Part shown: positions 4,619-56,237 of the stretch, in pieces
Numbering within the stretch: the stretch's first letter is position 1
How the letters are laid out: every line of letters starts with the position of its first letter
Virus record (IMG/VR): IMGVR_UViG_3300020120_000133
Coordinates: 1 to 64,000 of that record
Strand: one strand, 5' to 3'
Length of the DNA: 64,000 bases
DNA from: a virus
Notes under the pieces: generated by a model
Databases searched by the model: none
What the model was told of the DNA's origin: nothing
The model's input: only the letters and a program-made list of their open reading frames with translations
Translations under genes and position numbers: made by a program

Positions 4619-4641
4619 AAGGCAGGCGCGACGGCGCGATA

Positions 4642-6456: not shown

Positions 6457-6465
6457 AGGTATCCC

Positions 6466-6639: not shown

Positions 6640-6640
6640 G

Positions 6641-26440: not shown

Positions 26441-29400
26441 TCAACCCGGTTGATGTCGAATCGCGCGGCCCAATTTTTTATTTTTGATGACCGCTTGCGT
26501 CGCCATATCGACGATCAGGTCCGAGTTTTTATGAAGCCCGCGACGCACTAATTCGTCGTGATTTGCGACGACCGTGACATGCACGACCGGAGTTCCACCG
26601 CCCCCGCCACCGCGCATTTCGACCGGAATTTTCCCCGAGCGCAGCGGCACGAACGCCTCTGGGTTTCCGGTTTCCGCGATCAACCCCAATGTTCTACTCA
26701 TCGCGATTCCCCCATCCGCGTAAGAGTGAAACGGGATGAAGCCCGGAACGATGCCGCCGCCTCCGAACTCGGCACCAGCAGCGACACCGGCATAGGCATC
26801 GACGCCGGCGCCAGCGCTACTGGCCGCTGCTGATGATCCGCCGCCTCCACCGAACAAACTGGCGAAGATACCGCCGAACTGCGTCGTCACATTCCCGGCG
26901 TTGTTGCGCGTGAAGGCGTCGCCGAAAAGCCCCTGCGTGATGTCCTTCGATGCCATTTGGGTAAACGCGCGAGTAATGTCGTGCGCGAACCCGAGCAAGA
27001 CATCTTTCAGTTTTCCGCCTCGCCAAATCATGTCATCCAGCGCCGAACCCAAGCTATTCTGGAACGCATCGCGCGCGGCGACTCCGAACTCCAGCCAGCC
27101 CTCGGTGAGATAATCCACGCTGCGCCTGAGTTCCCGGACTTTGGCGTCGGCGGTTTCGAGGTTGTGGATCGTTTGGAGAAGCGCGAACGCGGCCGCATCC
27201 TTGTCGGCCCCGGGCTTCGCGCTTTGATAGGCGCCGAAAGCCTCGGTGATCTGGCCTTCCAGCCGCTGCCTGCCGCCGTTCGTGTAGATCGCCAAAGCGT
27301 TCTGCGCCGCCGTGCGATCGGAAACCGGTGTCGCGCCGTTGACCGCCGCGATGATCTGGGACGCGCTGCCCGAATGTATCAACGATCCGAGATCCAGCGA
27401 TCCATATTTCGTGCCTTCCAAAGCCGCCTGCACCGCGTTGGTTTGCTGGGTCTGGAGGAACCCGACGCGCGTCGAAAGCGGGATGTTTTTATCCGTGAGA
27501 AGCGACTGCGCTCCGAGACCGGTGATTCTCGCGATCGCGGTCGCATAAGAGGTCGTGCCGGCCAGGATGATCTGCTGCATCGCGGCGGCAGCATCCGGCG
27601 GAAGGTCCTTCGTCGCCTTGAACAGCGCTTCACCAAAATTACGTGCCGCACTGGAAGCCTGAAGCTGAATGAACTTCGCGGTGTCGGCCGCGCTGGCGAT
27701 GAGGTTGAATGCCGTGACCCCAGTGGAAGCGTAGCCGCCAAGAAAGCCAGCCGTGCCGATGCCGCCGCTGGGACGATCCAGCCCCAGTTTCTTCAGGTCG
27801 GTTGCCAGCGACGATCGGAGGCCGCCCAGCGCGGTGCCGAAAAGGTCGGGGTTCGCGTTGCTGGCGGCCTGCAGCAGCTTGTCCAACGGCGTTTCTTGGC
27901 GAACCGAGATTTCGTTCAGCGACTGCAACGCGCCCGGCAAGTTCTGCACTCTCGTCGCGTACCGGTTGCCGCTGCCGAAAGACTGCTGATCGATCTGGCT
28001 CCAAAGCGCGAAGCTGCCCCAGAAACTCTTCGTGGCATCCGAGATCCCGGAACCCTGAATGCCGCCGGGGGTGCCGGTGAATTGGCCGTTACGCGAGACG
28101 ACGAAGCCGTTCCGATCGGTCGTCCACGCCATCGGCCCGTTGCCTTCGAAGACGGTGCCGCCGCTGGGTCCGCGCGTGCCGGTAAGCCCCAGTGCGTGTT
28201 CGACGGCCAAGTCGAGAAGGCTGTGCTGATCGTCATGGCTGAGATGGGGGCCGGCGCCGGTAGCGCTCCCACCGTTGATCCCCCGAAGCCGACCAATTGC
28301 CCAAACGACCAAATCGATGTCCGCGACGATGTCGTGGATCGCCGAACCGATCGTGGCCGCAGCCGCCGGCAGGGCAGATGCCGCGTCGGCGAGCTTATGG
28401 GCCGCGAGGGCGAAGGCTTCGGTCGCATTTGCGGCGGCATCCCCTTGATCCTTTGCCCCGGTCAGCGTCGTCGCGAACTTCAGCAGCCCCCCGCCCAAAC
28501 CAGCGAAAATCCTGTCCAGATCGGCACCGATGCGGTTGGCCTGCTTGTCGAAATTGTCGGACCCGAAGAACTTAAAGAGATTCTGTGTCAACGCCCCGAT
28601 CTTGGCCGAGACGGAGTCGAAGACATGGCTATCGGCGATCTTGGTCAGACCGAAATCGAAAGCCTCTCTCAGCTTGTCCAGTCGGCGACTGATCAGGTTC
28701 CCGGTCTGGCTCAGAGCCTCTTCGGGCAGAAAGAGGTCGGCGAAGCGCTGGACCGCCTGGAACCTCAACTGGGCGCTTCCCCGCAATTCTGGCGTCGTTC
28801 GGCCCACAAGACCGGCTAGAACGTCTTCCGAGAGTCCGAAGCGTCTCCGAAGCAGCGGCACGCCCCCTGAGCCGCCTTCTGAGAGCTGTCTTAGAGCGAT
28901 TAGGGCTTGCTCGGTGCCTTCACCCCCGACCAAGCCAAGCCGGGTTGCTAATGCGGCGAATTGCTGGATGCCTTGTGGACCGAACTGATTGGCGAGCGCG
29001 GGGGTTTGGGCAAGCAGGCTGCCGGCACCCCTGAGTTCAGAGACAAGCAGCGGGGAACTGCCAGAACCGGCGACAAGGCTGTAGTTCAAGGCGCGGGCGC
29101 GCTCCATCGACCCGACGACGCCGAGAATCGAGATTTCGAACTTGCGACTGCGCTCGTCGGCCTCCAGCATGAGTTTATTAAATTGGACAAAGGGCTGAAT
29201 CAGGGCGCGGTCGATGACATTCGCGACGCGCTCGATGCTGTAGATCGAGGCGGCGAGGGTGGTCACGCCACTCTGTATGCTCGCAAAGATGCCCCCGATC
29301 CCACCGCCGCCAGCGCCGCCTCCCCCGGAGCCGCCCACCTTGTTAAACGACTGAACGATGCGGTTTGCAAGTTGATCGACGACCGCCGCAACCTGTTTGG

Positions 29401-29503
29401 CCTCAGCATCGACCGTTGCGGCGATCTGCTTCATCCCCTGTTGTGTTCCAGCGGCGATCTGGGAACTGTCGATAACCAAACGCAAACGAATCGGTTCGGG
29501 CAT
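26441..29503 (-). CDS. Tail tape measure protein (1020 aa)
   Basis: Long helical, Gly/Ala-rich protein with an N-terminal coiled coil and G-rich tracts. Lies upstream of the tail-tip genes. Confidence 0.85.
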   Translation of the reverse strand: MPEPIRLRLVIDSSQIAAGTQQGMKQIAATVDAEAKQVAAVVDQLANRIVQSFNKVGGSGGGGAGGGGIGGIFASIQSGVTTLAASIYSIERVANVIDRALIQPFVQFNKLMLEADERSRKFEISILGVVGSMERARALNYSLVAGSGSSPLLVSELRGAGSLLAQTPALANQFGPQGIQQFAALATRLGLVGGEGTEQALIALRQLSEGGSGGVPLLRRRFGLSEDVLAGLVGRTTPELRGSAQLRFQAVQRFADLFLPEEALSQTGNLISRRLDKLREAFDFGLTKIADSHVFDSVSAKIGALTQNLFKFFGSDNFDKQANRIGADLDRIFAGLGGGLLKFATTLTGAKDQGDAAANATEAFALAAHKLADAASALPAAAATIGSAIHDIVADIDLVVWAIGRLRGINGGSATGAGPHLSHDDQHSLLDLAVEHALGLTGTRGPSGGTVFEGNGPMAWTTDRNGFVVSRNGQFTGTPGGIQGSGISDATKSFWGSFALWSQIDQQSFGSGNRYATRVQNLPGALQSLNEISVRQETPLDKLLQAASNANPDLFGTALGGLRSSLATDLKKLGLDRPSGGIGTAGFLGGYASTGVTAFNLIASAADTAKFIQLQASSAARNFGEALFKATKDLPPDAAAAMQQIILAGTTSYATAIARITGLGAQSLLTDKNIPLSTRVGFLQTQQTNAVQAALEGTKYGSLDLGSLIHSGSASQIIAAVNGATPVSDRTAAQNALAIYTNGGRQRLEGQITEAFGAYQSAKPGADKDAAAFALLQTIHNLETADAKVRELRRSVDYLTEGWLEFGVAARDAFQNSLGSALDDMIWRGGKLKDVLLGFAHDITRAFTQMASKDITQGLFGDAFTRNNAGNVTTQFGGIFASLFGGGGGSSAAASSAGAGVDAYAGVAAGAEFGGGGIVPGFIPFHSYADGGIAMSRTLGLIAETGNPEAFVPLRSGKIPVEMRGGGGGGTPVVHVTVVANHDELVRRGLHKNSDLIVDMATQAVIKNKKLGRAIRHQPG

Positions 29504-33754: not shown

Positions 33755-34626
33755 GGTGCGCTCGTTGTAGCAATGTTCGCCGGCGACGTTCCGGGAAATT
33801 CCCTGATGCGTAATCGTTCAGGCCAATCGCTAGGGTCGCCGCTGACTTTGCCGTTGATCGGCATCTGTTTGTGAAAACATCTCACCCCCGCCGACTTGCA
33901 CTGATCGATAATGCTCAACGCGGCGTCGGCATAACCGTCCGCGAATCGGCCGGGGTAGTTGCCGCGCGACTCACAGCCAATAATCACCCACTCGACGTTC
34001 TGTTCGAGATAGCCCCTGATGTTCCCCAAATCTTCCAGCAGCGGCTCAAGGCTCCAGAAATGCACTGCGGCGAGGCAGGCCGATAGGTCCATCGCGCGGT
34101 CCATGCACTTCTGATTCTCGGCACTGACACCCAACCACACGTTGGGGAGTGGAAAGCTTTCGGGGACACGAATCTCATCGCCGAATTTCTCGCTTGCTGC
34201 CAGACACAACACGCCCCGTCGCGTTAGGGTCTCGCAATACTCCTTCATTCGTTCCGCGCGCTTGGTCAACACCTGGAACGTGTGCTGCGGACAAAGCGCC
34301 ATAACGGCAAACACTCTGTCGATGAACTCGAACGGCACTGACTTGTGGAACATGTCCGACATGGAGTTGACGAAGACGCGGCGGGGCTTGCGCCAGCCGA
34401 ACGGGATCTTCAGTGCCGGCTCGGCCGTTCGGACAATGCCGTTGAAGTGACGATCGCCCTTCGGATTCAAGACAGTCAGCCCTGCATATTTCGCCTGTCC
34501 CATTTTTTCGAGGCGGTAGGTTTGCCGAACCGCATAACATGAATCACAGCCCGGGGAGGCGTGTGTGCAGCCCGCGACCGGGTTCCATGTCGCGTCAGTC
34601 CATTCGATATCGCTAGATGTTGCCAT
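33751..34626 (-). CDS. Phage Gp37/Gp68 family protein (DUF5131)
   Basis: IEWTDATWNPVAGCTHASPGCDSCYA signature. Confidence 0.75.
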   Translation of the reverse strand: MATSSDIEWTDATWNPVAGCTHASPGCDSCYAVRQTYRLEKMGQAKYAGLTVLNPKGDRHFNGIVRTAEPALKIPFGWRKPRRVFVNSMSDMFHKSVPFEFIDRVFAVMALCPQHTFQVLTKRAERMKEYCETLTRRGVLCLAASEKFGDEIRVPESFPLPNVWLGVSAENQKCMDRAMDLSACLAAVHFWSLEPLLEDLGNIRGYLEQNVEWVIIGCESRGNYPGRFADGYADAALSIIDQCKSAGVRCFHKQMPINGKVSGDPSDWPERLRIREFPGTSPANIATTSAP

Positions 34627-40549: not shown

Positions 40550-40884
40550 TTCGCACCCTTCGGATTCGCGATTTCCAGCAGAATGTCGGCATGGCACGAA
40601 TCACCGGGTTTGCACCAGCAAGCCAGATTCTTCCCGCGCAGCACTCGCCGCGCAGCAAGGGCGACGGTCTGCCCAACCGGATTCACTTCCAGCCAAACCC
40701 GGAACGCATCAACCGCATCCTTCTTCGTGTCGATTGGAGTGGACCCGACGACGCTTCCTACCTTGAACGGGTTTCCCCACATGCCGCTGCTGCGATCAAC
40801 GCAGACCACGGGCAAACCGTTGGGTGATGTGAGGCGCGACCCCTTCTTTCGGCTGCGCTGAATACGAACCGGCGTCGGGTTCAT
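40546..40884 (-). CDS. DUF4326 domain protein
   Basis: WGNPFKVG...AVDAFRVWL...LRGKNLACWCKPGDSCHADILL signature. GGAGGG SD. Confidence 0.7.
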   Translation of the reverse strand: MNPTPVRIQRSRKKGSRLTSPNGLPVVCVDRSSGMWGNPFKVGSVVGSTPIDTKKDAVDAFRVWLEVNPVGQTVALAARRVLRGKNLACWCKPGDSCHADILLEIANPKGAK

Positions 40885-40974
40885 GCCGCCCTCCGCAATG
40901 TTTCAGCAATCAAATGGCCCGTTTGTTCAGTGGATGTGCGGAGAGAACCGGCTACCCACAATGCGCAATGAATA

Positions 40975-41016
40975 AGCCCGCAAATGCTGGATCGACCAAG
41001 CATCTGCGGGCTTTTC
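40975..41016 (+). promoter_or_regulatory. Strong hairpin followed by a T-run, in the divergent region upstream of the integrase
   Basis: AGCCCGCAAATGCT-ggatcgacca-AGCATCTGCGGGCT then TTTC. No plus-strand gene lies upstream for it to terminate. Confidence 0.35.
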
Positions 41017-41147
41017 GTCCTATCCGACGCGGGGTAGGACGCTTCATTTTTCAACCCCGTAGGCGCCGGTGTCACCAAACCGTCACAGACATCCGCTCCG
41101 ACAGCAGTTACGTTTCCAAGATACCCGACCCGCAAGGAAAAACCGCA

Positions 41148-42398
41148 ATGCGACGACGACAGACGGCGTTCCCGCAATGGTGGAACGATCTCCACATCCC
41201 CGACCGCCTCCGCGAACAGGTCCGCGCCACCTTCACGATCAACCGCGACGGCTACGTGATCTGGTACAACGGCAGGACGCGAACCGTCTGCGGCAAGACC
41301 GTCGCGCCCGCCGATGTGCAAGACCGCTGGCTGAAGAAGAAAGAGGCCATCGACGCCGGCGCCGAATACGGTCCTCCCAACATCTACCGCGATGCCCTGG
41401 CCGACTTCCTGAAGATGCAGCGTGACCGCCTCGTCGCCGCGAAGAACCGCATCGAGCATCGCACCTACCACAACTACGAGGTCGCCCTGAACGATTTCGG
41501 CAACTTCGTCTTCGAGCATCGCAAGGTCGCGGATACACCACTGGCCGAACTCGGACCCCGCGTCTTCGCCGCCTATGCCTCGAAGTTCAACGGCTGGAAG
41601 GCCAGCGGTTTCGACTCCATCGTCTGCCGCGTCGGCGCGCTGTTCCGGTGGTGTGTCGAGATGGAATACCTCGATCGCTATCGCCCCGGCCCTCAATTCG
41701 TCAGACCGGCGAAACAGGAAATCGTTGACCAGCGCATCGACCTGACCAAGAGTTTCGAGGCCCAGGAGATCGCGGACCTCTATGTCGCGGCCAACCAAAC
41801 GGTGCGCTGCTGGATCGCGCTGGGACTCTGCGCCGGCTTCAACAACTCCGACATCGCGCACCTGCCCCGCGCCGTCGTCGATCTCGAATCCGGCATCATC
41901 GACTTCCGGCGCCGCAAGTCCGGCAAGAAGCGCCGCGTCATCCCGCTGCCAGCCGATCTCGTCGATCTGCTGAAGCGATACCAGCGACCCGACCCCACCG
42001 ACGCCGTTCACGCTGGCCTGTTCTTCGTCTCCGAATACGGCAATCCCTACGGCCGCACCCGAAGCCGAAACGGCGACTACATGCCGAGCGACAGCGTCAG
42101 CCGCCTGTTTGGCCGGCTGATGGATGACGCCAAAGTCGAGCGCCGCCGGGGCCGCAACTTCTCCGGCCTGCGGACGACGCTGTTCAACTGGTGGCCGCGC
42201 GGTCAATGGGATCTGGAACGCAAGATCGTCATGGGACGCGCCACCGGCACCGTCGATCTCGACAGCTATCTTGAGGATGTCGGACTGGAACGTATCGGTC
42301 ATGGCGTCAACGAAGTGTGGGGTCGGGTCAAGCCGCTGATCGAGTCGGCGACGATCAATCTTCCGACTCATCCTCTTCCTCTTCGCCCTCTTCCTTGA
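41148..42398 (+). CDS. Tyrosine-recombinase-family integrase with apparently non-canonical catalytic residues
   Basis: Integrase-like layout (SAM-like N-domain, FRRRKSGKKRRVIPL, FSGLRTT, MGRATG...DSYL). Start at ATG 41148 behind AAGGAAAAA. Confidence 0.65.
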   Translation: MRRRQTAFPQWWNDLHIPDRLREQVRATFTINRDGYVIWYNGRTRTVCGKTVAPADVQDRWLKKKEAIDAGAEYGPPNIYRDALADFLKMQRDRLVAAKNRIEHRTYHNYEVALNDFGNFVFEHRKVADTPLAELGPRVFAAYASKFNGWKASGFDSIVCRVGALFRWCVEMEYLDRYRPGPQFVRPAKQEIVDQRIDLTKSFEAQEIADLYVAANQTVRCWIALGLCAGFNNSDIAHLPRAVVDLESGIIDFRRRKSGKKRRVIPLPADLVDLLKRYQRPDPTDAVHAGLFFVSEYGNPYGRTRSRNGDYMPSDSVSRLFGRLMDDAKVERRRGRNFSGLRTTLFNWWPRGQWDLERKIVMGRATGTVDLDSYLEDVGLERIGHGVNEVWGRVKPLIESATINLPTHPLPLRPLP

Positions 42399-42675
42399 CG
42401 ACGACCTTCGTCCTGCCTTCGAAAATCTCGACGATGGTGCCATCGTGCTTGAACTTGCTGATGCTCTTGCCGCGCATCAGGCCCACCAGCTTCTCCCGGG
42501 CGCTATCGACCTTCTCCTTGGCCGTCGAAAGCACTTCGTCGCGTTCGCGCTTCGCTTTCGAATATCGCTTGGCGGCGCGGAAAAGTTCCTTGTCCTGCGC
42601 ATTGTCCATATCAAGCTCAGGGAAAAGGGCACGATCCTCGTTCTCAGTCGTCGTATCTGTTTCGGTCTCCGGCAT
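42355..42675 (-). CDS. Hypothetical acidic protein (106 aa)
   Basis: ORF-track ORF behind AAAGGA. Its 3' end overlaps the convergent integrase by 44 nt. Confidence 0.45.
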   Translation of the reverse strand: MPETETDTTTENEDRALFPELDMDNAQDKELFRAAKRYSKAKRERDEVLSTAKEKVDSAREKLVGLMRGKSISKFKHDGTIVEIFEGRTKVVVKEEGEEEEDESED

Positions 42676-44136: not shown

Positions 44137-44325
44137 CTAAGTTGATTTGGTTGATGCCCGGTTCTTGCGCTCGATCGCGTCGAACACTTCCTTGCGGTGG
44201 ACTTGGACGTCATTCGGCGCCCGGATTCCGACGCGAACGTTGCCGCCCTTGATCCCGAAGATCATGACCTCAACGTTCTTCCCGATCATGATGGACTCAT
44301 CTACCGCTCTGCGGACAACAAGCAT
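44137..44325 (-). CDS. csrA: Carbon storage regulator CsrA homologue
   Basis: MLVVRRAVDESIMIGKNVEVMIFGIKGGNVRVGIRAPNDVQVHRKEVFDAI aligns along its full length with E. coli CsrA ([48 protein letters not shown]). Confidence 0.9.
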   Translation of the reverse strand: MLVVRRAVDESIMIGKNVEVMIFGIKGGNVRVGIRAPNDVQVHRKEVFDAIERKNRASTKST

Positions 44326-45354: not shown

Positions 45355-45813
45355 ATGAATAAAGGTGTCGAAATCGATGTGAACAAGCTGGCGCGAATCC
45401 TAGACGACCGGCTGATGACGCATCAGGCGCTGGCTGTCGGCATCCATTCGAATCGGGAGACGGTGAGCCGGATTCTTGGCGGCAGCAGGCCCTCCCGCGC
45501 CGTCCTGTCCAGGATCATCGCGTTCCTCGGCATCAAGAAAGAAGCCCTTCTCAGCACCGATGTCGTGGACATCTCGATCCCGCGCGAGACCTACGACGGC
45601 TTGGTGCATCTGATGAAGTCTGATGAGACCCCGGCGAAGACGGTTCAGGAATATCTTCGGCAGCACGTCGCCAAAGAGGCGATCCGCGTCAGACACGCCG
45701 AAACCGGGAGTTCCGGGAAATCATCGGCATCTCGTACTCGCGCGCCTGATCCAAGGCGCGATGGTAGGTCGCCATCGTCGCGGCGACAGAAACCAAGATC
45801 ATTCCGGCCTTGA
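45355..45813 (+). CDS. XRE-family HTH regulator (Cro-like position)
   Basis: ATG 45355 behind GGGAAG. LMTHQALAVGIHSNRETVSRIL. The last ~40 codons are low-complexity, so the real functional C-terminus is unclear. Confidence 0.55.
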   Translation: MNKGVEIDVNKLARILDDRLMTHQALAVGIHSNRETVSRILGGSRPSRAVLSRIIAFLGIKKEALLSTDVVDISIPRETYDGLVHLMKSDETPAKTVQEYLRQHVAKEAIRVRHAETGSSGKSSASRTRAPDPRRDGRSPSSRRQKPRSFRP

Positions 45814-45967
45814 GGTCGATATCACAGCCGACGTCGAGAATCGCGAGCGGCACCATGAAGACGATCCACTTGCGCAGCCCAACGACGATGTCCCAACGTT
45901 CCAGGAATTCTTTCGGTGCCGTCATTCCGACCCCTTCCAACGTGACCGAACGGGAGGCTAACGCCAT
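45689..45967 (-). CDS. Possible small two-TM protein
   Basis: WIVFMVPLAILDVG and GMILVSVAATMATY are hydrophobic segments. It conflicts with the tails of both plus-strand neighbours. Confidence 0.25.
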   Translation of the reverse strand: MALASRSVTLEGVGMTAPKEFLERWDIVVGLRKWIVFMVPLAILDVGCDIDLKAGMILVSVAATMATYHRALDQAREYEMPMISRNSRFRRV

Positions 45968-47690
45968 CCGCGCGAGAGTTCAAGAGAATTGCCATTTGCC
46001 CGAGCCGATTGGATTGCGTCCCCAATTCGGAGCGGCGGAATCTAAGGGAAAGACTGACCCGGTCGCAAGCACAAAATTAAGAAAATGGGGAAGGCGGGAA
46101 ATTCAGGTCGTCGCGGTCGCGCTGATCTCGCTCGTCGTGATCTTGCCACGATCCATTTCGATCGTTCGATCCCACTCGCCCTGTACCGACGATTTCTACC
46201 ATATCGAGCGTGGCGCGCTGTTCTGGTCACGACATCTGGGGTCAACGGATCTGAACGATCCACCGCTCGGCGAGGCCATCGGGGCGATCCCGGTTTCGGC
46301 ATCGGACTGGCTGTTGCTGCTGCCGCGATTCCGCAAGTTTGTGCTGTCGCGAGATCAGGCCCAACTCATCGTCGCGATCTGGAAATCGATCATCTTCGCC
46401 CCCTTGGTCGCGATCGTCTTTTGCTGGCTTCGCGGGTTGTACGGCGTCGGTGCCGGATGGTTCTGTGCCGCGCTGATCGTCTTCGATCCCAACGTCACGG
46501 CGCATCTTCATCTCGGCGCCATCGACATGCTCGGGGCCGAGGTCGCCGTTGTGGCGCTCTACGCGGTGTCGCGATGTCTGGACCGGCCGACGACGATCCG
46601 GCTGCTGCTGGCTTCCACTGCCATCGCGGCTGCGGTTCTGACGAAGCACACGAACATCTTGGTGCCGGTCGTCGCGGTCGGGTATGGGGCGATGCGTCGC
46701 GTTCCCTTCGCGGTCATCGTGAAGTTGCTGGCGCCGATCCCGGTGCTGATGTGGGCGCTGCTATTGTTCGACGTCTCGGTCCCGACGGTGCCGCGAGATT
46801 GGCGCGAAGCTGGCTGGGCGGCGCCGACACTGTTGCGGCATCGCGTCCCCTGCGGCCTCTACATCGGTTCGTTGTGGCAGGCGCGCTCCCATGTCGCCAG
46901 CGGGCATCCCGGTTTCCTCAACGGCGAGATCCGCGACAACGGCTGGTGGTTCTACTACTTCGCGGTCGCGGCGTACAAAGTGCCGGTCGCGACGCTGCTG
47001 TTGATCGGGGTCGCGGCGCCTTCGTTCCTGTGGAAGCCGATGGGGCGCGCCGAGTTAGAGTTGATCCTGCCGGCGATCGTGTTCGCGGCCGCGCTGTCGA
47101 TGTCACCGATCAACATCGGGTTCCGGCATTTTCTGCCGGCGTATCTGTTCGTCCTGATGCTGTCGGCGCGGATCATTGCGATCATTGGAATCCCCGGCGC
47201 CGTGAAGGCGATGGCCTGGATCGGTCTCGCCGCCGGCGCGGTCCATGCCGCCAGTTTCCATCCCGACTATCTCGGCTACATCAACTGGCCGCGCGACAAG
47301 GTTTGGTTGCGCATCGGCGACAGCAATCTGGACTGGGGACAGTCGCTCAAAGAGGTCAAGGCTTGGCTGGAAGCGCATCCGCAGAACCGGCCCGTCTCCG
47401 TCGGCGCGTTCTACGGCGGCGAACCGACGCAGCGGGAGGTCCGCAGATATATCGGCAAATCGGTCGATGCCCGGCTGATCTGGGATCCGCCGCCCCAGCG
47501 CGGCTTGCTGATCGCGTCGCCGACGTGGGTTGCGGGAATCTACGGGTTCGGAGATCGCTATGCCGAGTTCAGGTCGCGCGATCCCGACGCCGTGATCGGT
47601 CGCTGCATGTTGGTCTACGATTTGGATCGGATCAGAGAAGAATCGAGTCCAGCCCACACGCAATCGTCATCCCCGATTTCCCAACCCTGA
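45888..47690 (+). CDS. GT-C fold glycosyltransferase (GT39/ArnT/PMT-like), polytopic membrane protein
   Basis: More than 10 hydrophobic segments. First-loop DDFYH...LNDPPLGEAIGAIPV resembles the ArnT/PMT family. The start is uncertain (ATG 45888 or TTG 46014). The track start at 45810 is a TTG. Confidence 0.65.
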   Translation: MSQRSRNSFGAVIPTPSNVTEREANAIRARVQENCHLPEPIGLRPQFGAAESKGKTDPVASTKLRKWGRREIQVVAVALISLVVILPRSISIVRSHSPCTDDFYHIERGALFWSRHLGSTDLNDPPLGEAIGAIPVSASDWLLLLPRFRKFVLSRDQAQLIVAIWKSIIFAPLVAIVFCWLRGLYGVGAGWFCAALIVFDPNVTAHLHLGAIDMLGAEVAVVALYAVSRCLDRPTTIRLLLASTAIAAAVLTKHTNILVPVVAVGYGAMRRVPFAVIVKLLAPIPVLMWALLLFDVSVPTVPRDWREAGWAAPTLLRHRVPCGLYIGSLWQARSHVASGHPGFLNGEIRDNGWWFYYFAVAAYKVPVATLLLIGVAAPSFLWKPMGRAELELILPAIVFAAALSMSPINIGFRHFLPAYLFVLMLSARIIAIIGIPGAVKAMAWIGLAAGAVHAASFHPDYLGYINWPRDKVWLRIGDSNLDWGQSLKEVKAWLEAHPQNRPVSVGAFYGGEPTQREVRRYIGKSVDARLIWDPPPQRGLLIASPTWVAGIYGFGDRYAEFRSRDPDAVIGRCMLVYDLDRIREESSPAHTQSSSPISQP

Positions 47691-47895
47691 TGGTCACTTC
47701 CCGGTCGTGCCACGCCGAGGGGAAACGGTCGCTGCGCAGCCGCCATATTTCTCGTTCGACCGATGGGATTTTGCTTCTGGAAGCCAGAAAGATATCGGCG
47801 GTGTATTCAAGCTCGTGAAGCAGCGCCCCGACCGCCTGTTTCGAGACCGTCGCCCGAACCGTCGCGCCCGTTTTTACGGCACCCATCAACCGCAT
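47632..47895 (-). CDS. Candidate 87-aa ORF overlapping the 3' ends of the BCS1-like and GT39-like genes
   Basis: Starts at the ATG of GCGTCTGATG, the same stop/start box used at 21497 and 53429. By hand count its third-position GC is higher than that of either overlapping frame. The overlapping tails of the BCS1-like and GT39-like ORFs look like junk. Confidence 0.3.
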   Translation of the reverse strand: MRLMGAVKTGATVRATVSKQAVGALLHELEYTADIFLASRSKIPSVEREIWRLRSDRFPSAWHDREVTIRVGKSGMTIACGLDSILL

Positions 47896-49042
47896 CAGAC
47901 GCTTCGCGCATCGACAGCAGCCGTTCTTGGATCGCCGCCATGCTGCGCCCGGCCATTTCCTTCGCGAATCCAGCGGCGTCGCCGTTGACCCCCGCGCCCA
48001 TGAATCTTCGGTACATCGCGGCTGCTTGTTCCTCTGTGGCATCGTCGATCAGCAGGTGGACGTCGGCGCGTCCCGGTCGGACCAGTGCGCCGTCCAGCTT
48101 GTCGCGATGGTTCGTCGTCATCATGAGGATTTGGCCCTCCTTAGCGACGACGCCGTCGATGGCGTTGAGTAAGCCGCTGAAGGTGAGGTCGTGATTGCTG
48201 TCGCGCCCCTTCCATGCGGCATCGACATCTTCGATGAGAAGGACGCTGTTCGATGGAGTCCGAATCAGGCATTCGATGAGATCGTTGTCGCTCTTGAAAC
48301 TCGACAGGCTCAGGACGCACAGATTCCTTCCCAACTCACTCGCCATCGCGTGCGCCAGCGAACTCTTGCCGTTTCCCGGCGGTCCATGAAGCAGGTAGCC
48401 GCGACGCCACGGGATGCCACGGTCGAAGTACCATGCCTTCGATCCGATAAACCGAACGGCGTCCGCGATCAGCGCCTCGGCCTTCCCGCCGGGCAGCACA
48501 ACCGAGGCGACGCGGCGGATCGGCTTACGATCAGCCAACTGCCAGTTCGGCCCCGACGGCACCCACACTTCCACGACCGAACCATTCTTGAACTTCGCGA
48601 ATCGATAGGCTTCTTCAAGCAGTTCCTCGAATATTTTCTTGTCGCGCCCGAGGCATTGCAGCGTGATCAATTCACGGTAGCCGTTCTGCATCTGCAGTTC
48701 TTTTCTCTCGACCCAAACGACGATGCGGCGGCCCCGGAAGCGCAGCCAGCAGAAACTGATCGGGAACAGTGAGAAGTCCGGTTTCACCGGGCCAGTTCCG
48801 GGACCATCAGGAAAGACCGCGTTGATCCCCATCCATCGGGATTTCGAATTCGCGGCCAGCCATTGCTTCACCCACGCGAACGCGCAGTCGCTGTTGTCGA
48901 TTTCCGCCGTCAACAGCAGCCGATTCTTGATCCAGCGGAGGATCGCTTTCGGCGCATCTCGACACGCGGCGGCGCACCAACCAGCGGCGACGACCGCGAG
49001 GCCACCGGAGAAGAAGGGGTTGTGGAGAAGTTCCGAGATCAT
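47807..49042 (-). CDS. BCS1-like AAA+ ATPase with an N-terminal membrane anchor
   Basis: GYLLHGPPGNGKSS (Walker A), VLLIEDVD (Walker B), MTTNHRDKLDGALVRPGRADV. Hydrophobic N-terminus. ATGA overlap with the PDF stop. Confidence 0.8.
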   Translation of the reverse strand: MISELLHNPFFSGGLAVVAAGWCAAACRDAPKAILRWIKNRLLLTAEIDNSDCAFAWVKQWLAANSKSRWMGINAVFPDGPGTGPVKPDFSLFPISFCWLRFRGRRIVVWVERKELQMQNGYRELITLQCLGRDKKIFEELLEEAYRFAKFKNGSVVEVWVPSGPNWQLADRKPIRRVASVVLPGGKAEALIADAVRFIGSKAWYFDRGIPWRRGYLLHGPPGNGKSSLAHAMASELGRNLCVLSLSSFKSDNDLIECLIRTPSNSVLLIEDVDAAWKGRDSNHDLTFSGLLNAIDGVVAKEGQILMMTTNHRDKLDGALVRPGRADVHLLIDDATEEQAAAMYRRFMGAGVNGDAAGFAKEMAGRSMAAIQERLLSMREASDAVDGCRKNGRDGSGDGLETGGRGAASRA

Positions 49043-49635
49043 TTGATGCCGACGGCGCGTTGCAGTTCCCAAGCCTCGCCGACGCGACAAATTCCGGAAA
49101 GATGGTCGATCTCATGCTGGACCACTCGCGCGGACCAAGCGACGAAGGTGAGTTGCGTCAGCATCCAATCGAGGCCGCGATATTGCACCGTGATCCGATT
49201 GAACCGCTCGACGTTGGCGCGGACGCCGGGGAACGACAAGCAGCCCTCGACGGAAACGTTGGTCTCGGCGCTGTGATCGATGATCTCGGGGTTGAGCATG
49301 AATAAGCCGTTCGTCCGGTTCGGTGCCACGAAGACGGCGCGGCGCAGCCAATCGATTTGATTCCCCGACAGCCCGACGCCGCCAGCCGAATACTCACAAG
49401 CCGTCCGCAGCAGCCGCAGCTTGGCGACATCCCTTAAATCTTCTTCGGTGAACTCCGCAGCCACGGCTTTCAGGGACGGATGCCCGAACTTCACGATCTT
49501 CGTTGTCGCGGCACCGCAGCATCCTTTGGCTTTGGTGCCGCTGCCGCAGGGACACGGCGAATTTCTGTCATACCCGCGAAATAACTGCACCGGACGATCT
49601 AACGGCAGGATTGCAGATTTTTGATCGGTGTTCAT
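49039..49635 (-). CDS. def: Peptide deformylase with an N-terminal SEC-C metal-binding motif
   Basis: GVGLSGNQI, EGCLSFPG and QHEIDHL are the three PDF motifs. CPCGSGTKAKGCCG is a SEC-C motif. The ATG overlaps the T-frame stop (TGATG), with AGAGGA upstream. Confidence 0.8.
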   Translation of the reverse strand: MNTDQKSAILPLDRPVQLFRGYDRNSPCPCGSGTKAKGCCGAATTKIVKFGHPSLKAVAAEFTEEDLRDVAKLRLLRTACEYSAGGVGLSGNQIDWLRRAVFVAPNRTNGLFMLNPEIIDHSAETNVSVEGCLSFPGVRANVERFNRITVQYRGLDWMLTQLTFVAWSARVVQHEIDHLSGICRVGEAWELQRAVGIK

Positions 49636-50569
49636 CACATCCTCTTGGACTCCCGCTTCGCCTTCTCGATCGCGGCGGCGCGGCGCTTATCCTCGATCGC
49701 CGCGCGCTTCTGCGTCGCGACCCGATCGAGTAACCACATCAACTCCAACGTCTCCCAGCGCTGCAGTTCCGACATCACGTTCAGCCGGCAATGCTGATCC
49801 AGAATCGCGACGGCCTGTTCCATCTGAAGCGTCCCGAAAAGGCTCGCCGATTCTCCGCTTCTGAGGTCCGACGCCGCCAGCCGGTACAGTTTGACCGCCG
49901 TGAAGTTCGCCGGGTGCAGGCCGAACGTCGCGGGATACAGCAGATATTTCGGACATCGTCGGCATGGCGGATCGCGCCTCGGAACGATCGCTTTGTGCGC
50001 GGTGATGCAGCTTTTGCAGTTCCCGGTGACGCTCTCGGACGTGTTGAAGACCGGGTTCAGGCCGAACTCGTAGCCGGCCCAGTCGATGAGTTTTTTACGC
50101 GGGTCTCCCAATCGGCGGCTTGGAAGCGGCCGATGTCCTGACAGATCGTCCAAACGAAGTTGCTAAACGGCTTGCAGTGATCGAGGACGAAAAGGATGTT
50201 CTCTCTCGCCTCGCTCGACTTCCCGGAAACCGACGGGTCCATCGGAACCTCGGCGTCCATGCCGCCGCATTTCGCGACTTCGTCGGCATCCAGCGGCACC
50301 ATTGATCGCAGTTTCGCGAACGTCACCTTCTCACAACGAATCACGGCTTGCAGGCAAACTTCCTGCACGACGGCGAGTTGGAACGCGGCCGGGGACTCTT
50401 CGCCCTCGCGACGCCCGCGCAATTTGATGAGGTCCTGGACCTCGCGCATCGCGTCGGGTCCGAGAAACTGCAGCCAGACCTTAAACCCAGTGGTGTCGTC
50501 GGCGTTCTCTGGATACCAGAACAGTCGCGTCAGGGCGCCGGCTTTCGGCTTCATGTTGCTGAGGTTCAT
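49635..50569 (-). CDS. Tail assembly chaperone GT fusion made by a -1 programmed frameshift
   Basis: The T frame (49635..50153) has no plausible own start and overlaps the end of G by 97 nt. The slippery A_AAA_AAC is in the correct phase. Located directly downstream of the tail tube gene. Confidence 0.65.
50057..50569 (-). CDS. Tail assembly chaperone G (170 aa)
   Basis: AAAGGAA SD. Position after the tail tube gene. C-terminal ...DWETRVKNSS contains the slip site. Confidence 0.65.
   Translation of the reverse strand: MNLSNMKPKAGALTRLFWYPENADDTTGFKVWLQFLGPDAMREVQDLIKLRGRREGEESPAAFQLAVVQEVCLQAVIRCEKVTFAKLRSMVPLDADEVAKCGGMDAEVPMDPSVSGKSSEARENILFVLDHCKPFSNFVWTICQDIGRFQAADWETRVKNSSTGPATSSA
50090..50096 (-). 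promoter_or_regulatory. Slippery heptamer A_AAA_AAC (-1 ribosomal frameshift site)
   Basis: G frame reads GTA AAA AAC. The -1 frame continues AAA AAA CTC ATC GAC, giving KKLID..., which is exactly the T-frame ORF. Confidence 0.65.
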
Positions 50570-50618: not shown

Positions 50619-50648
50619 CAAAAAACCGCCCGGCAACGCACCGGGCGG
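50619..50648 (-). terminator. Rho-independent terminator/attenuator after the tail tube gene
   Basis: Minus strand CCGCCCGG-tgcgttg-CCGGGCGG followed by TTTTTTG. Confidence 0.7.
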
Positions 50649-50676: not shown

Positions 50677-51690
50677 TTAATCATCGATCGCGGCTTCGGA
50701 GGTCGTGATCTGGACCTCGATGTCCGGCGTGTTCCCATCCGTCGATGCCAAGCATTCGCCGCCCAGCGCGATATCGATGGGGCCGGGAGTCGAAATCTTG
50801 GGTGACGCATTGTTCGGCAGCAGGTTCACGCGATCGAGCAGGAACGCGAACGAATAGGCCCCGTGGGTCGCGATGATGTGGATCGAGGTATCGGTGCCGT
50901 TGATCGCCTTGTTGTAGAGGTAGAAGTCGCTGAACAGGAACGATCCGTTGAAGGTGACGTCGCGGGTGCCGGGCTTGAGGTTGACCCGCTTATTCGATCC
51001 CAGAACGAAGTTGTCGCCGTACATATTGTTCGCGATTCGCATCTGCAGCGACCGCGCGGTGCCGAGCTGGGTCGCCGAACCGGCCTCGTAGATCGCGATC
51101 TCGACGGAAGTGAAGGGATCGACCGATTCGTCGATGACCGTCGGACTGCCGCCGAAAATGCTGGTGCCGCTGGGGGACGTGAACTCGCGCCCCATCACGT
51201 CGAAACTGCCGGCCGTGATGCTGTCGATGTTGAAGTTTATGTCGCAACTGTTGACCCGGCAGCCGAGGATCGCGACGTACTGGACCGATGCCAGATCAGT
51301 GAACTTCTTCTCGACGCTGAAGCCGGTGGGCAGCGACGGGGACCCGACGATGGTGTGGACGTGGTTCGGGGCAGCGGAGCCGTTATCGACGCTGACGGAG
51401 CCGCCGAGCAGGTGCCAGAACAGTTGGGAGACGCCCTTGTGGGCCAGTTCGAAGGGGATGGAGCCGCCGGGCCGGACGGAACCGCGAACCGAGCCGGTGC
51501 TGCGGGCGCGGGAGGGAATCATCGCGTTGGAGCGGTACAGCGCGATGTTCTGATCGATGGTCTCGCCCGGCAGCAGGTTCAGTTGCCGGATCGTGGAGGC
51601 CGGTCGGGCGACGCCCCAATCGGTTTCTTTGCCCATCCTGATGCTGGATAGTGCGCCGGTGGCCTGCGTTTTCTCGAAGGTGCTGGGCAT
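50677..51690 (-). CDS. Major tail tube protein
   Basis: Start at ATG 51690 behind ACAGGAGATC. Beta-rich 337-aa protein. It is followed by a terminator and then G/GT. Its N-terminal pattern (G.ETDWG...LNLLPGETI...L.S..) resembles tail tube families. Confidence 0.65.
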   Translation of the reverse strand: MPSTFEKTQATGALSSIRMGKETDWGVARPASTIRQLNLLPGETIDQNIALYRSNAMIPSRARSTGSVRGSVRPGGSIPFELAHKGVSQLFWHLLGGSVSVDNGSAAPNHVHTIVGSPSLPTGFSVEKKFTDLASVQYVAILGCRVNSCDINFNIDSITAGSFDVMGREFTSPSGTSIFGGSPTVIDESVDPFTSVEIAIYEAGSATQLGTARSLQMRIANNMYGDNFVLGSNKRVNLKPGTRDVTFNGSFLFSDFYLYNKAINGTDTSIHIIATHGAYSFAFLLDRVNLLPNNASPKISTPGPIDIALGGECLASTDGNTPDIEVQITTSEAAIDD

Positions 51691-51751
51691 CTGCTGATCT
51701 CCTGTGGAGGTCACAGACGCCTTTGGCGGGTTGGCTGGCCGTGCGGGAGGC

Positions 51752-54874: not shown

Positions 54875-56182
54875 TTAGACCGCGTCGCTGATCGTGATCT
54901 CTGCATAGACCTCGCCGAGAATGTTGGCGTCGGTGTTGACACCGTCCGGCTTGGTGATGCCGAAGCGGGTGTAGCCGCCCTTGGTCCGCTTGAGGGTGCG
55001 GGGATCGACGAAGTCGTCGGCCATGCCCCACATGCGGTAGGGGTTCCAGAAGATCGACGGTTCCATCTCCATCTGCGGCCGGTAGCCGAGATAGATTTTG
55101 TTCGTGTTGATCATCGGGGCGATCAGGATGCGGAGGCCGCCGTTGTCCATCAGGCCGAGGTCCCGGATCGCACCGGTGCGCTGATCGATGTTGGAGTCAT
55201 CGACGCGGATCGGATCGAAGGTCTTGACCGACGAGATGTCCGTCGCCGCATTGGAGCCGCAGACCGCGAAGTTCGGGCGCACGTAACGCTTGTCGTAAAT
55301 CTTCTGCATCGCCGGCAGGAAGGCGTTGGCCCAAATCTGTTCGCGCCACGCGCTCTGTTCGCTGGGGGCCAGACCGGCCCAAGCGACGGAGTTGATCGTG
55401 GGGGTGCGCTTCCAGGTGACCTTGTTGGCCGCCGGGACTGCCGCGACCATCGCGGCGATCATGACGGAGTCGACCGCGAGCTTGACGTGGTAGGCCATGC
55501 GCTCCGACATCACGGCGTTGTAGTCGCGGCCGTACTGGGAAGCGTAGTCCTCTTCGGTCTGCAGCGCCGAGATCGCCGAGACGCCGTAGGTGTCGGCCGA
55601 GATATCGATCGAGTCCATCGACATCTTCAGCAGCCCGAGGTTGTCGAGCTGGTTGGCCTGCTTGAAGAACGCGGCATTGAACTTCGTCAGATCGGCGGTG
55701 TTGTCGCCGGTCAGGATGTTCGGGGACGAGGACGCGAAGGCGTTGTCGTACAGCACGTTCTCGAAGAACACGCGCGCGGTCGGGCCGGTCATCGGGATGA
55801 CCGGGAACAACTGCGGGGTGATGAGATCGGGATACGCGCGGGTGATGACCCGGAGAAGCTGCCGCGTGAAGTTCGGAATGTCGGTTCCCGCGAGCGTCGC
55901 TTCCTTGTGGAGAACCGAGGGCAACGTGACGCCGAGGTTTCGCAGCATCATCGCCATGCCGAGCTTGTAGGTGGCCTCGAAGCGCTTGCGAATCGGCTTG
56001 CTGCCGGGCATCCGCGAGTTCCAATCGACCGCTTCGATGAACGGCCGGAACTTCCGCAGCAGCCCCGCCGCTTCGAAGCTCAGGGTGCCGGCGTCGAGGA
56101 TCGCCGAGTTCTGGAAATCCTCGATCTCGGCCGGGAGTCCGGCTGAAACGGCTTTTTCAAAGATGGTAAGCGTGTCGATCAT
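54875..56182 (-). CDS. Major capsid protein
   Basis: Start at ATG 56182 behind ACAGGAGATC. 435-aa protein directly after the protease/scaffold gene and followed by an attenuator. The N-terminal extension in the track looks like junk. Confidence 0.7.
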   Translation of the reverse strand: MIDTLTIFEKAVSAGLPAEIEDFQNSAILDAGTLSFEAAGLLRKFRPFIEAVDWNSRMPGSKPIRKRFEATYKLGMAMMLRNLGVTLPSVLHKEATLAGTDIPNFTRQLLRVITRAYPDLITPQLFPVIPMTGPTARVFFENVLYDNAFASSSPNILTGDNTADLTKFNAAFFKQANQLDNLGLLKMSMDSIDISADTYGVSAISALQTEEDYASQYGRDYNAVMSERMAYHVKLAVDSVMIAAMVAAVPAANKVTWKRTPTINSVAWAGLAPSEQSAWREQIWANAFLPAMQKIYDKRYVRPNFAVCGSNAATDISSVKTFDPIRVDDSNIDQRTGAIRDLGLMDNGGLRILIAPMINTNKIYLGYRPQMEMEPSIFWNPYRMWGMADDFVDPRTLKRTKGGYTRFGITKPDGVNTDANILGEVYAEITISDAV

Positions 56183-56237
56183 CGGACGATCTCCTGTTGT
56201 TGCCTTCACAGACGCTGCGGTCGGGTTTTTGCCGATC

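Follow-up and report, generated by a model that had tools for sequence, protein, structure and literature searches.

A peptide deformylase (PDF) with an N-terminal SEC-C-type zinc knuckle and a membrane-type Bcs1-like AAA+ ATPase are encoded by adjacent, overlapping genes at the end of a phage late operon. Proteins of each kind are already known in phages, and the two are not a conserved pair. Our main reading, to which we give a probability of about 55%, is that they provide accessory functions that are independent of each other and linked only by co-expression, the PDF being active and carrying a SEC-C tether and the ATPase being anchored in the membrane.

The window (the whole 64,000-nucleotide stretch of DNA analysed) is part of a metagenomic, temperate siphovirus-like phage genome of about 101 kb, and both proteins are recorded from one JGI contig of 101,025 bp. 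Hallmarks of a phage include a Gp23-like capsid protein, a prohead protease, a tube protein, a tape measure and J-like tail genes, and genes of the lysogeny type (integrase, HTH switch and CsrA) are also present. All features of the PDF/ATPase locus are on the minus strand. The late operon would run from capsid via tube and G/GT chaperone to the two-gene accessory cassette at its end, followed by a convergent gene and then a lysogeny module. The convergent gene (45810..47690, plus strand), which marks the downstream boundary of the operon, encodes a 626-aa membrane protein that is weakly PMT_2/GT39-like (PF13231, E=1.5e-4, below the cut-off) and has no match in PHROG. As the preliminary description had it, the cassette occupies the slot expected for the tape measure: the candidate for the latter (26444..29503) lies about 18 kb beyond the G/GT chaperone, with accessory, lysogeny and recombination genes between them.

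The tail tube protein gene (50680..51714; Phage_tube_2 in Pfam, E=1.1e-35; phrog_290, E=1.5e-38) is 48% identical to that of a related phage, L081. It is directly followed by the gene for the 170-aa tail assembly chaperone G (50057..50569), which is 42% identical to its L081 counterpart and has no match in Pfam or PHROG. A hairpin found between them by a consensus scan (50626..50648; a 10-bp stem with 8 G-C pairs, then TTTTTT) may act as a terminator, the total of terminator-like sites in the region being not above that of shuffled sequences. Within G is a -1 programmed frameshift site, the slippery heptamer A_AAA_AAC (50090..50096), which reads X_XXY_YYZ in the G frame. It leads into the T frame (49635..50153, stop TGA at 49637-49635), a -1 extension that yields a GT fusion. 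The T frame has a CxxC...CxxC motif and a GC3 of about 0.82, and is 41% identical to that of L081, where it is kept together with an identical heptamer in the same register.

The PDF (49039..49635, 198 aa) is of the viral type with a short C-terminus, to which an N-terminal extension is added. It matches Pep_deformylase in Pfam (PF01327, 110 bits, E=8e-32) and phrog_2890, although its scores stay under the NCBIfam equivalog cut-offs. All three catalytic motifs, GVGLSGNQ, EGCLS and HEIDH, are present; only about 20 residues, with a short helix at 184-194, follow the last. The best solved relative by sequence is the PDF of Vibrio phage Vp16 (5mtc, E=2e-20), and the AF2 model (pLDDT 89) gives target-normalised TM-scores of 0.83-0.89 against PDFs. 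The PDF with three catalytic motifs and N-terminal SEC-C that was originally described is confirmed. It is probably an active viral-type deformylase, which would strip N-formyl groups from growing chains while late proteins are being made in a burst. Phage PDFs have already been published, so it is not a first; about 30 listed Vibrio phage records have near-identical match positions, and in the two inspected the PDF gene is among apparent tail genes.

The knuckle itself (aa 24-41, RNSPCPCGSGTKAKGCCG, 49513..49566) scores 24.9 bits with PF02810 against a cut-off of 20.4, and the spacing of its metal ligands, C28-x-C30-x8-C39-C40, is that of the SecA metal-binding domain. Its AF2 pLDDT is 72-79, residues 1-20 being disordered. 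The motif is conserved in eight further homologues (P0241-P0246, P0303 and P0340), and all six of the best-scoring PDF relatives among 1.84 billion representatives have the knuckle at the N-terminus. This N-terminal SEC-C-PDF fusion is a small clade of at least nine representatives, on phage-like contigs where the context is known, and is one of the modest new points of this analysis. Another is the existence of C-terminal fusions: in five other PDFs (P0027, P0028, P0040, P0083 and L039), a canonical SEC-C follows HExxH by about 20 residues at the C-terminus, where the ribosome-binding helix would begin. Sister PDFs that lack SEC-C are rich in Lys/Arg in their N-terminal tails.

What could such a knuckle do? 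When isolated, the metal-binding domain of SecA sediments together with 70S ribosomes and crosslinks to uL23; it also binds SecB (PMC6620043). In viral PDFs the C-terminal region that binds the ribosome is missing (PMC5591237). From this, and from the C-terminal fusions and basic tails just described, we infer that the N-terminal knuckle may tether the PDF to the ribosome, where it would substitute near the exit tunnel for the long, basic C-terminal helix by which bacterial PDFs dock. It is, however, less basic than that of SecA and has lost a conserved aromatic residue (KAK instead of KKYK), so that ribosome binding is not assured. In addition, five of the eight N-terminal SEC-C PDFs contain an additional hydrophobic stretch with basic residues after it, which hints at membrane-tethered PDFs and a possible link to the membrane ATPase.

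The ATPase (47807..49042, 411 aa) combines a hydrophobic helix at the N-terminus with the middle domain of Bcs1 and an AAA cassette (BCS1_N 75 bits, AAA 79 bits in Pfam). Its Walker A (G220-K226), Walker B (E271/D272) and arginines (R322/R325) are all invariant in alignment A1, and its last 16-29 or so residues are unconserved and predicted to be disordered. It belongs to phrog_7485 (E=1.4e-65). The original assignment to the membrane-type BCS1 family is borne out by BCS1_N together with a match to yeast Bcs1 (6sh3, E=5.7e-66), aligned from the transmembrane helix onward, and a TM-score of 0.74 over 401 columns between the AF2 model and full-length Bcs1 (8tp1). The mechanism and defining features of Bcs1 have been described (PMC12219900), as have Bcs1 orthologues in phages, for which a membrane-proximal assembly role has been proposed (PMC7824862). 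By homology, a single helix would anchor the ATPase in the cytoplasmic membrane, where it would form a ring and handle a folded protein at the expense of ATP, presumably with the timing of late expression. There is no Rieske protein gene nearby, and therefore the client must differ from that of mitochondrial Bcs1; the leading guess is a phage virion or envelope-related protein.

Matches to the IetA models of PADLOC (E=6e-13) and to NCBIfam IteA (4.9e-11), as well as the position at the operon end by the glycosyltransferase-like gene, the HTH switch, CsrA and the integrase, could be taken to mean that the ATPase is a prophage defence or exclusion gene (moron) resembling the IetA type beside the lysogeny module. 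This is improbable: these matches are confined to the AAA cassette (aa 173-378) and reach 42 bits against a family cut-off of 510, no IetS-like partner is found, the gene shares the strand of the late operon and its start codon overlaps, and orthologues occur in jumbo phages that are not known as temperate.

A further modest new point, noted in passing, is that Bcs1-like genes in bacteria of two phyla are found within operons of the types rtcB-prfH-AAA and rtcB-AAA-rtcA, in which stop and start codons overlap. Such linkage to RNA repair occurs at 10 of 80 bacterial Bcs1-like loci and at none of 13 Bcs1-type viral loci surveyed. The ATPases from these operons are 32-34% identical to that of the present phage, versus 36-40% for other bacterial homologues. 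In L086, an RtcB fragment is found close to a PDF with C-terminal SEC-C. PrfH is another ribosome-acting factor, to whose gene bacterial Bcs1-like genes are translationally coupled, and the parallel with PDF may not be accidental.

How are the genes of the cassette joined? Both overlaps originally described are present: the T-frame TGA (49637-49635) overlaps the PDF ATG (49635-49633) as TGATG, and the PDF TGA overlaps the ATPase ATG as ATGA (49042-49039). Translational coupling to the chaperone, which had been claimed along with them, is weak for the PDF, since this gene is preceded, 4 nt from its ATG, by a Shine-Dalgarno sequence of its own (AAGAGGA) and the T frame is translated by frameshifted ribosomes only. 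Coupling from PDF to ATPase is plausible because the ATPase gene lacks a Shine-Dalgarno sequence.

A third gene had also been suggested, an 87-aa candidate (47632..47895, an open reading frame only) beginning at a "GCGTCTGATG box". This box is at chance level, being found 10 times at up to one mismatch against 7.7 expected. The frame overlaps the last 29 ATPase codons as well as the terminal part of the glycosyltransferase gene that converges on it. It has no match in Pfam, PHROG or PADLOC and no similarity to small ORFs after Bcs1-like genes of other phages. Neither a homologue nor its own copy is found among 5.8 billion proteins, and thus no gene caller had reported it. Its GC3 excess is within noise (38 non-overlapped codons) and the RNA fold is no better than those of shuffles (z = +1.4). 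Having no family match, homologue or codon-bias signal, it is judged unsupported as a gene.

The SEC-C-PDF and Bcs1 had been described as an unfamiliar paired combination inside a tail assembly operon, but the surveys of viral and bacterial neighbourhoods show that the pair is not conserved. The closest Bcs1-like relatives, of 42-52% identity (L081, L082/83, L087, L088 and L089) have no PDF nearby, and the closest PDF relatives (L084/85 and L175-L179) no Bcs1-like gene. Among IMG/VR PDF loci one of 80 has a neighbouring AAA gene, a generic one without BCS1_N; a PDF is present at none of 13 Bcs1-type IMG/VR loci and at one of 80 bacterial Bcs1-like loci, 3.7 kb away and 24% identical. In all, adjacency is absent from about 20 phage Bcs1-type loci and about 88 PDF loci, counts that refer to the local neighbourhood and not to whole genomes, most contigs of relatives having been inspected as 1-21-kb stretches. 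Both genes are present 15-130 kb apart in Brevundimonas/Caulobacter jumbo phages and Tunturi_5. In L081, whose capsid protein is 52% and ATPase 50% identical to those of this phage, the Bcs1-like gene and a 154-aa ORF are inverted between the tube gene and G, and no PDF is found within the 21 kb inspected. In L084, a PDF of 43-46% identity adjoins CsrA; it lacks the SEC-C motif, and no AAA gene accompanies it.

These neighbourhoods bear on three other readings. PDFs and Bcs1-like ATPases are both widespread among bacteria, and the uniform GC content cannot decide between phage and host origin; even so, it is very improbable that the two genes are host DNA caught at a prophage end or by chimeric assembly. 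They are joined by start/stop overlaps within a phage late operon, both have their nearest homologues on phage-like contigs, L081 shares the junction of tube, G/GT and lysogeny module, and phage tail genes resume on the far side.

That the two proteins form a module that acts in translation or handles nascent chains at the membrane, with the SEC-C-PDF on membrane-engaged ribosomes and the ATPase remodelling or extracting products or handling stalled complexes, seems rather unlikely. The ATGA overlap and the lack of a Shine-Dalgarno sequence before the ATPase gene are as expected of a two-component module and count against independence. The hydrophobic N-terminal anchors of sister SEC-C PDFs, the RNA-repair operons and the PDF of L086, and the co-occurrence in jumbo phages (Gurke, one of the Dolichocephalovirinae) and Tunturi_5 point the same way. 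Against this stand the missing adjacency and an RNA-repair linkage that is confined to a minority of bacterial loci, absent from viral ones and carried by more distant ATPases.

Just as doubtful is a role of the ATPase in tail morphogenesis, with the tube, the GT chaperone or the displaced tape measure as clients and the PDF as a passenger. It would accord with the proposed membrane-proximal role (PMC7824862), with the Bcs1-like gene adjoining tube and G/GT in two phages only about 50% identical (this one and L081), and with homologues that adjoin a portal gene (L087), immediately precede TerL (L089) or are no more than 3 kb away from it (L082 and KASIA). However, position and orientation of the gene differ between the window and L081, contexts in cultured phages are mixed, and other Bcs1-like loci lie in DNA-metabolism modules, with ligase, nuclease, methylase, dUTPase and ribonucleotide reductase surrounding the gene at six syntenic viral loci (L183-L189) and L088. 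Moreover, assembly at the membrane is not known for siphovirus tails. Independent accessory functions remain the preferred reading.

Compared with known systems, the chaperone genes resemble lambda-type gpG/gpGT in having two overlapping ORFs after the tube and a canonical -1 heptamer conserved in a relative, but they match no sequence family and the tape measure does not come next. The PDF shares the catalytic core and three motifs with those of Vp16 (target-normalised TM-score 0.89) and cyanophage S-SSM7 (3uwa), and like viral short PDFs it is a phage accessory gene product without the long ribosome-binding C-terminal helix. Unlike the solved viral PDFs, it has a 45-residue N-terminal extension bearing the knuckle, and whereas the Vp16 PDF ends right after its motif, it continues for the short stretch past HEIDH that includes the helix. 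The knuckle shares the C-x-C-x8-C-[C/H] spacing and G-S-G core of SecA SEC-C, but is N-terminal, on a different enzyme and poorer in basic residues. The ATPase has the three-part protomer of mitochondrial Bcs1 (yeast 6sh3, mouse 6uko/8tp1), at 33-35% identity, but is phage-encoded and lacks the mitochondrial presequence region. It is of the same family as the phage orthologues of phrog_7485, such as Caulobacter phage CcrColossus gp235 and those of Brevundimonas jumbo phages. Cultured-phage orthologues are 30-32% identical to it over 90% of its length, whereas it falls into a closer uncultured clade (42-52% identity) on phage contigs of about 50-100 kb, and among them all it is here alone that the ATPase directly follows a PDF.

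The ORF map places the gene for a Gp23-like major capsid protein (54878-56326, minus strand) and a prohead protease-like gene in one late operon. Further along it, the tail tube gene (50680-51714, minus strand; Phage_tube_2 in Pfam, E = 1e-35) is followed, after a terminator-like hairpin, by a gene for a 170-aa chaperone G (50057-50569, minus strand); a -1 frame ORF running to 49635, the T frame (49635-50153, minus strand), overlaps the G gene. A canonical slippery heptamer, A_AAA_AAC at 50096-50090 on the minus strand, joins the G and T frames in the correct register, and thus the layout of a G/GT tail assembly chaperone is present, with two overlapping ORFs after the tube gene and a -1 slippery heptamer. 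Neither part matched any family in Pfam or PHROG searches. Nevertheless, the assignment is sound, because the heptamer is in register and because the identical A_AAA_AAC site, together with a T frame 41% identical to that of the window, is found in L081, a related 92-kb phage contig. Unlike the norm for G/GT, no tape measure gene lies directly downstream; the slot is occupied, as the preliminary description had stated, by a peptide deformylase (PDF) gene and a AAA gene, and the tape measure candidate is found at 26444-29503, on the far side of intervening genes. The reported codon overlaps are likewise real in the sequence: in TGATG the stop codon of the T frame overlaps the ATG of the 198-aa PDF gene (49039-49635, minus strand), and in ATGA the stop codon of the latter overlaps the ATG of the 411-aa AAA gene (47807-49042, minus strand). 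A Shine-Dalgarno sequence directly precedes the PDF gene; none precedes the ATPase gene. Both proteins are recorded from a single JGI metagenome contig of 101,025 bp, and the window PDF has no entry in the gene-position index.

Downstream of the PDF-ATPase cassette there are a convergent gene for a membrane protein weakly resembling GT39, two divergent HTH genes, genes for CsrA and an integrase, and recombination and methylase genes; only beyond these are the tape measure candidate and the distal tail genes found. As the window and L081 have the same junction of tube, G/GT and lysogeny module, the cassette can be placed at the 3′ end of the late transcription unit, beside the lysogeny module, which is a typical position for accessory genes. 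The tail module is thereby split, with G/GT at around 50 kb and, about 18 kb away, the tape measure candidate at 26.4-29.5 kb, all within 26444-50153; the gap holds the accessory cassette, the lysogeny module (HTH pair, CsrA and integrase, the last at 40914-42398 on the plus strand), an exonuclease, RusA and methylases.

Several other features of this region were observed. The T domain of GT carries a conserved four-cysteine motif (49700-49960 in the window, about 9100-9400 in L081), GNCKSC...CRRCPKYLL in the former and GNCADC...CQRCPKYLL in the latter, which by its sequence looks like a zinc ribbon; to our knowledge, a zinc ribbon is not typical of tail chaperones. Phages of this group have a gene for a CsrA homologue (PF02599, E = 2.7e-20), at 44137-44325 (minus strand) in the window, 5723-6022 in L081, and 9744-9950 and 92-298 in the compared loci L084 and L085, respectively, in both of which it lies directly upstream of a PDF gene. 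The convergent 626-aa multi-pass membrane protein (45810-47690, plus strand), weakly similar to PMT_2/GT39, has no match in PHROG or NCBIfam and is a candidate surface-modifying (lysogenic conversion) protein. A DUF5131 protein (31976-34626, minus strand), whose gene lies directly upstream of that of a HerA/FtsK-like ATPase, matches the PADLOC candidate defence models PDC-M41B and PDC-M30B (E about 1e-68), and a DUF6527 protein (PF20137; 52181-52522, minus strand) is encoded among the head-tail connector genes. tRNA genes, sought in the window as a clue to host or attachment site, number zero.

The first gene of the cassette encodes a peptide deformylase (PF01327, E = 8e-32, 110.4 bits against a cut-off of 22.8). 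All three catalytic motifs that had been read from the sequence are found in it and in an alignment of PDFs: GVGLSGNQ, E130-GCLS-134 and H174-EIDH-178. In the first, Ser-Gly replaces the Ala-Ala of the consensus G-x-G-x-A-A-x-Q, and Gln93 is invariant. Of the solved structures, the minimal PDF from Vibrio phage Vp16 (5mtc) is the closest in sequence (E = 2e-20), and an AF2 model (pLDDT 89) gives target-normalised TM-scores of 0.83-0.89 to PDFs in Foldseek. The protein scores below the housekeeping equivalog of NCBIfam (TIGR00079, 91.4 against a cut-off of 103.95). In contrast to housekeeping bacterial PDF of type 1B, it lacks the long basic C-terminal α3 helix that docks on the ribosome: only 20 residues, with a helix at 184-194, follow HEIDH, whereas about 32 follow that motif in Escherichia coli PDF, and viral PDFs in general also lack this helix (PMC5591237). 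Long two-stretch matches to PDF (317-704 aa) turned out to be tandem PDF-PDF proteins and were set aside as irrelevant. Vibrio phages 1.023.O and 1.194.O have a minimal PDF gene among tail-like genes (about 2956-7568 in both loci), flanked by coiled-coil protein genes and by an NlpC/P60 endopeptidase gene and an ORF of about 915 aa, in what looks like a tail-tip module; near-identical match positions occur in about 30 listed Vibrio phage records, of which these two were inspected. A PDF gene among tail genes therefore has precedents.

The SEC-C motif proposed for the N-terminus of the PDF also held up. SEC-C (PF02810) scores 24.9 bits against a cut-off of 20.4 at residues 24-41, so that both Pfam domains of the protein pass their cut-offs, and the knuckle ligands C28, C30, C39 and C40 have the C-x-C-x8-C-[C/H] spacing of SecA. 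Compared with the SecA consensus G-S-G-K-K-[Y/F]-K, the window PDF keeps Ser32 and has Ala36 in place of the aromatic residue. The knuckle is N-terminal here, whereas the motif of SecA is C-terminal. When 1.84 billion cluster representatives were searched exhaustively by HMMER with the window PDF, the top six relatives by score (P0241-P0246, E = 1e-44 to 1e-35) and the homologues P0303 and P0340 were found to have an N-terminal knuckle. In these eight homologues the same motif is kept, as DRNxPCxCGSGxKxKKCxC directly preceding the PDF core, and the aromatic position is A or T throughout except for Tyr in P0303; five of the eight have, further upstream, an extra hydrophobic stretch with basic residues after it. 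Knuckle-less sister PDFs have Lys/Arg-rich N-terminal tails. N-terminal query coverage in Brevundimonas, Tunturi and Vibrio phages and in a faecal contig proved to be read-through upstream, with no SEC-C on translation. A canonical C-terminal SEC-C is present in five further PDFs (P0027, P0028, P0040, P0083 and that of IMG/VR locus L039), where it retains the Y/F aromatic and starts about 20 residues after HExxH, at the would-be start of the ribosome-binding helix. SEC-C-PDF genes with known context lie on phage-like contigs (L086, L177/178 and L179). The N-terminal fusion thus forms a clade, is not a one-off, and represents a modest new variant; no paper on a SEC-C-peptide deformylase fusion was found in a full-text literature search.

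Deformylase genes of phages rank among the most abundant accessory genes of viruses, and the fusions suggest how some of them may reach their substrates. The metal-binding domain of SecA is characterised by binding of Zn or Fe and of SecB or the ribosome; in isolation, it sediments together with 70S ribosomes and can be crosslinked to uL23, which lies at the exit tunnel (PMC6620043). Since this domain alone binds the ribosome, SEC-C is predicted to be a substitute ribosome tether for viral PDFs lacking the helix. Recurrent fusion at either end of PDF would thus offer a concrete, testable route to nascent chains without the ribosome-binding helix.

The second gene encodes a Bcs1-like ATPase, as had been recognised: BCS1_N (PF08740) scores 75.2 bits against a cut-off of 28.1 and AAA (PF00004) 79.1 bits, so that both the middle domain of Bcs1 and the AAA cassette are present. 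It matches phrog_7485 (E = 1.4e-65) and yeast Bcs1 (E = 5.7e-66, aligned from the transmembrane helix), and its AlphaFold model (pLDDT 89) has a TM-score of 0.74 to full-length Bcs1 (8tp1_A) over 401 columns. The family and structure searches thus confirmed the domain assignments of both proteins. Among 37 aligned homologues, G220, G223, G225, K226, E271, D272, R322 and R325, covering Walker A, Walker B and the arginines, are invariant. The N-terminal hydropathy is borderline (Kyte-Doolittle 19-residue maximum of 1.53 at residues 9-27). AF2 predicts a helix at residues 9-42, and by its alignment to the transmembrane region of yeast Bcs1 from residue 46 this segment is a putative membrane helix homologous to that of Bcs1. 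The final 16-29 or so residues lack conservation and are predicted to be disordered; the last 29 codons (47807-47895, minus strand), which encode this Gly/Arg-rich tail, have a GC3 of 0.48 against 0.74 for the whole gene, and the frame of an overlapping 87-aa ORF has 0.70 over the same stretch. A match to the IetAS anti-phage system was confined to the AAA cassette (NCBIfam 42 against a cut-off of 510; PADLOC E = 6e-13), and no IetS-type protease gene adjoins the ATPase gene. A defence-system reading was rejected, as the PADLOC matches are only to generic AAA and SEC-C tails.

The preliminary description had counted a third gene, the 87-aa ORF at 47632-47895 (minus strand). It overlaps two neighbours, the ATPase gene in its final 29 codons and the convergent gene at its end. 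It has no family match in Pfam, PHROG or PADLOC and neither a homologue nor a copy of itself in a set of 5.8 billion proteins, and it is unlike the small ORFs found after Bcs1-like genes in other phages. Over its 38 free codons, the GC signal by codon position is within noise, and the 'GCGTCTGATG' box at its start occurs at chance frequency. A terminator in its place was also rejected, the RNA fold being no better than those of shuffled sequences, with no terminator-like site after the AAA gene. The ORF is not counted as a gene. Elsewhere in the window, 40881-42443 carries long ORFs on both strands, a minus-strand one of 520 aa and a plus-strand one of 494 aa; the latter is the integrase (phrog_1, E = 1.9e-18), which indicates that spurious antisense ORFs arise in this GC-rich sequence.

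It was further proposed that the deformylase and the ATPase form a combination of their own, and here the surveys gave a different answer. A single-sequence scan of IMG/VR with the AAA protein gave no close relatives, and IMG/VR Bcs1-like loci were retrieved instead by an alignment-based scan. The closest Bcs1-like relatives (42-52% identity) all lie on phage-like contigs, none with a PDF gene nearby, and their neighbourhoods are heterogeneous. In L081, the Bcs1-like gene is inverted between the tube gene and G together with a 154-aa ORF (11198-11662, plus strand; no Pfam or NCBIfam match); elsewhere it precedes a terminase gene by 3 kb (L082/83), adjoins a T4-type portal gene (L087), immediately precedes TerL (L089), or stands among dUTPase, ribonucleotide-reductase and RecA genes (L088). 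Six syntenic IMG/VR loci have it between ligase/nuclease/GNAT genes and a DNA methylase gene, and three cultured-phage contexts are also without PDF. Altogether, PDF was near none of about 20 phage Bcs1-type loci, and a Bcs1-type gene was near none of roughly 88 PDF loci examined, the closest PDF relatives included. One of 80 IMG/VR PDF loci has an adjacent AAA gene (L055), a generic one without BCS1_N, and one of 80 bacterial Bcs1-like loci (1.3 Mb) has a PDF gene, 3.7 kb away and 24% identical. Brevundimonas and Caulobacter jumbo phages and Tunturi_5 carry both genes in the genome, 15-130 kb apart. Nor do the small ORFs after Bcs1-like genes make a conserved partner, as an all-against-all BLAST at E ≤ 10 gave no similarity. 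With no recurrent adjacency in phage, IMG/VR or bacterial surveys, the adjacency in the window is lineage-specific. Thus the preliminary description was largely correct as an observation, but the results do not support its reading of the genes as a novel paired system, and PDF and ATPase each belong to kinds already known in phages. This serves as a caution that a striking adjacency, even with overlapping start and stop codons, is no evidence for a system if related loci lack it.

Among the defining features of Bcs1 are a heptameric ring and the translocation of a client in its folded state, which in mitochondria is the Rieske protein (PMC12219900), and orthologues in jumbo phages have been published with a suggested role in membrane-proximal assembly (PMC7824862). 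By tblastn, orthologues were found in cultured phages of Caulobacter, Brevundimonas, Rhodococcus, Shewanella and others. ATPases of the Bcs1-like type occur widely among phages and bacteria, and we know of no client outside mitochondria.

Clustering the neighbours of 80 bacterial Bcs1-like genes revealed RNA-repair operons. In eight Rhodobacterales-type loci (L129, L132, L142, L144 at 8209-11227, L149, L150, L154 and L174), rtcB, prfH and a Bcs1-like gene follow one another with overlapping stop and start codons. Ro60 and RtcR genes are close by in four loci (L142, L145, L150 and L154), three of them among the eight. Two Phycisphaerales loci (L151, 8302-12294; L152, 96-4594) have the order rtcB, Bcs1-like gene, rtcA, in L151 downstream of RtcR, which is also near several of the Rhodobacterales-type loci. 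The PrfH literature examined describes a two-gene operon, and a literature search found no RtcB-Bcs1 link of this kind. The ATPases of these operons are more distant homologues (32-34% identity), and neither RtcB, PrfH nor Ro60 was found beside phage Bcs1-type genes in the viral loci surveyed. A nucleotidyltransferase (NTase) adjoining the Bcs1-like gene of phage NiceHouse was considered as an RNA-repair enzyme and rejected, since it has no solved relative. That some bacterial Bcs1-like genes belong to RNA-repair and ribosome-rescue operons narrows where to look for a role.

In both settings a ribosome-acting factor is coupled upstream of the ATPase, and a translation-related role, with a real link between PDF and ATPase, is therefore kept at low probability. 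We give about one chance in eight to the reading that prokaryotic and phage Bcs1-like ATPases serve the care of the translation machinery and not virion assembly, with the cassette and its SEC-C to be understood in the same way. If so, the phage would use the cassette as a device to keep ribosomes associated with the membrane, or nascent chains, productive during infection, and SEC-C would be a portable exit-tunnel tether gained at least twice by viral PDFs, at the N-terminus on one occasion and at the C-terminus on another. Such a role in translation would set the ATPases of the bacterial rtcB-prfH and rtcB-rtcA operons beside a phage ATPase coupled to a SEC-C deformylase that is putatively tethered to the ribosome.
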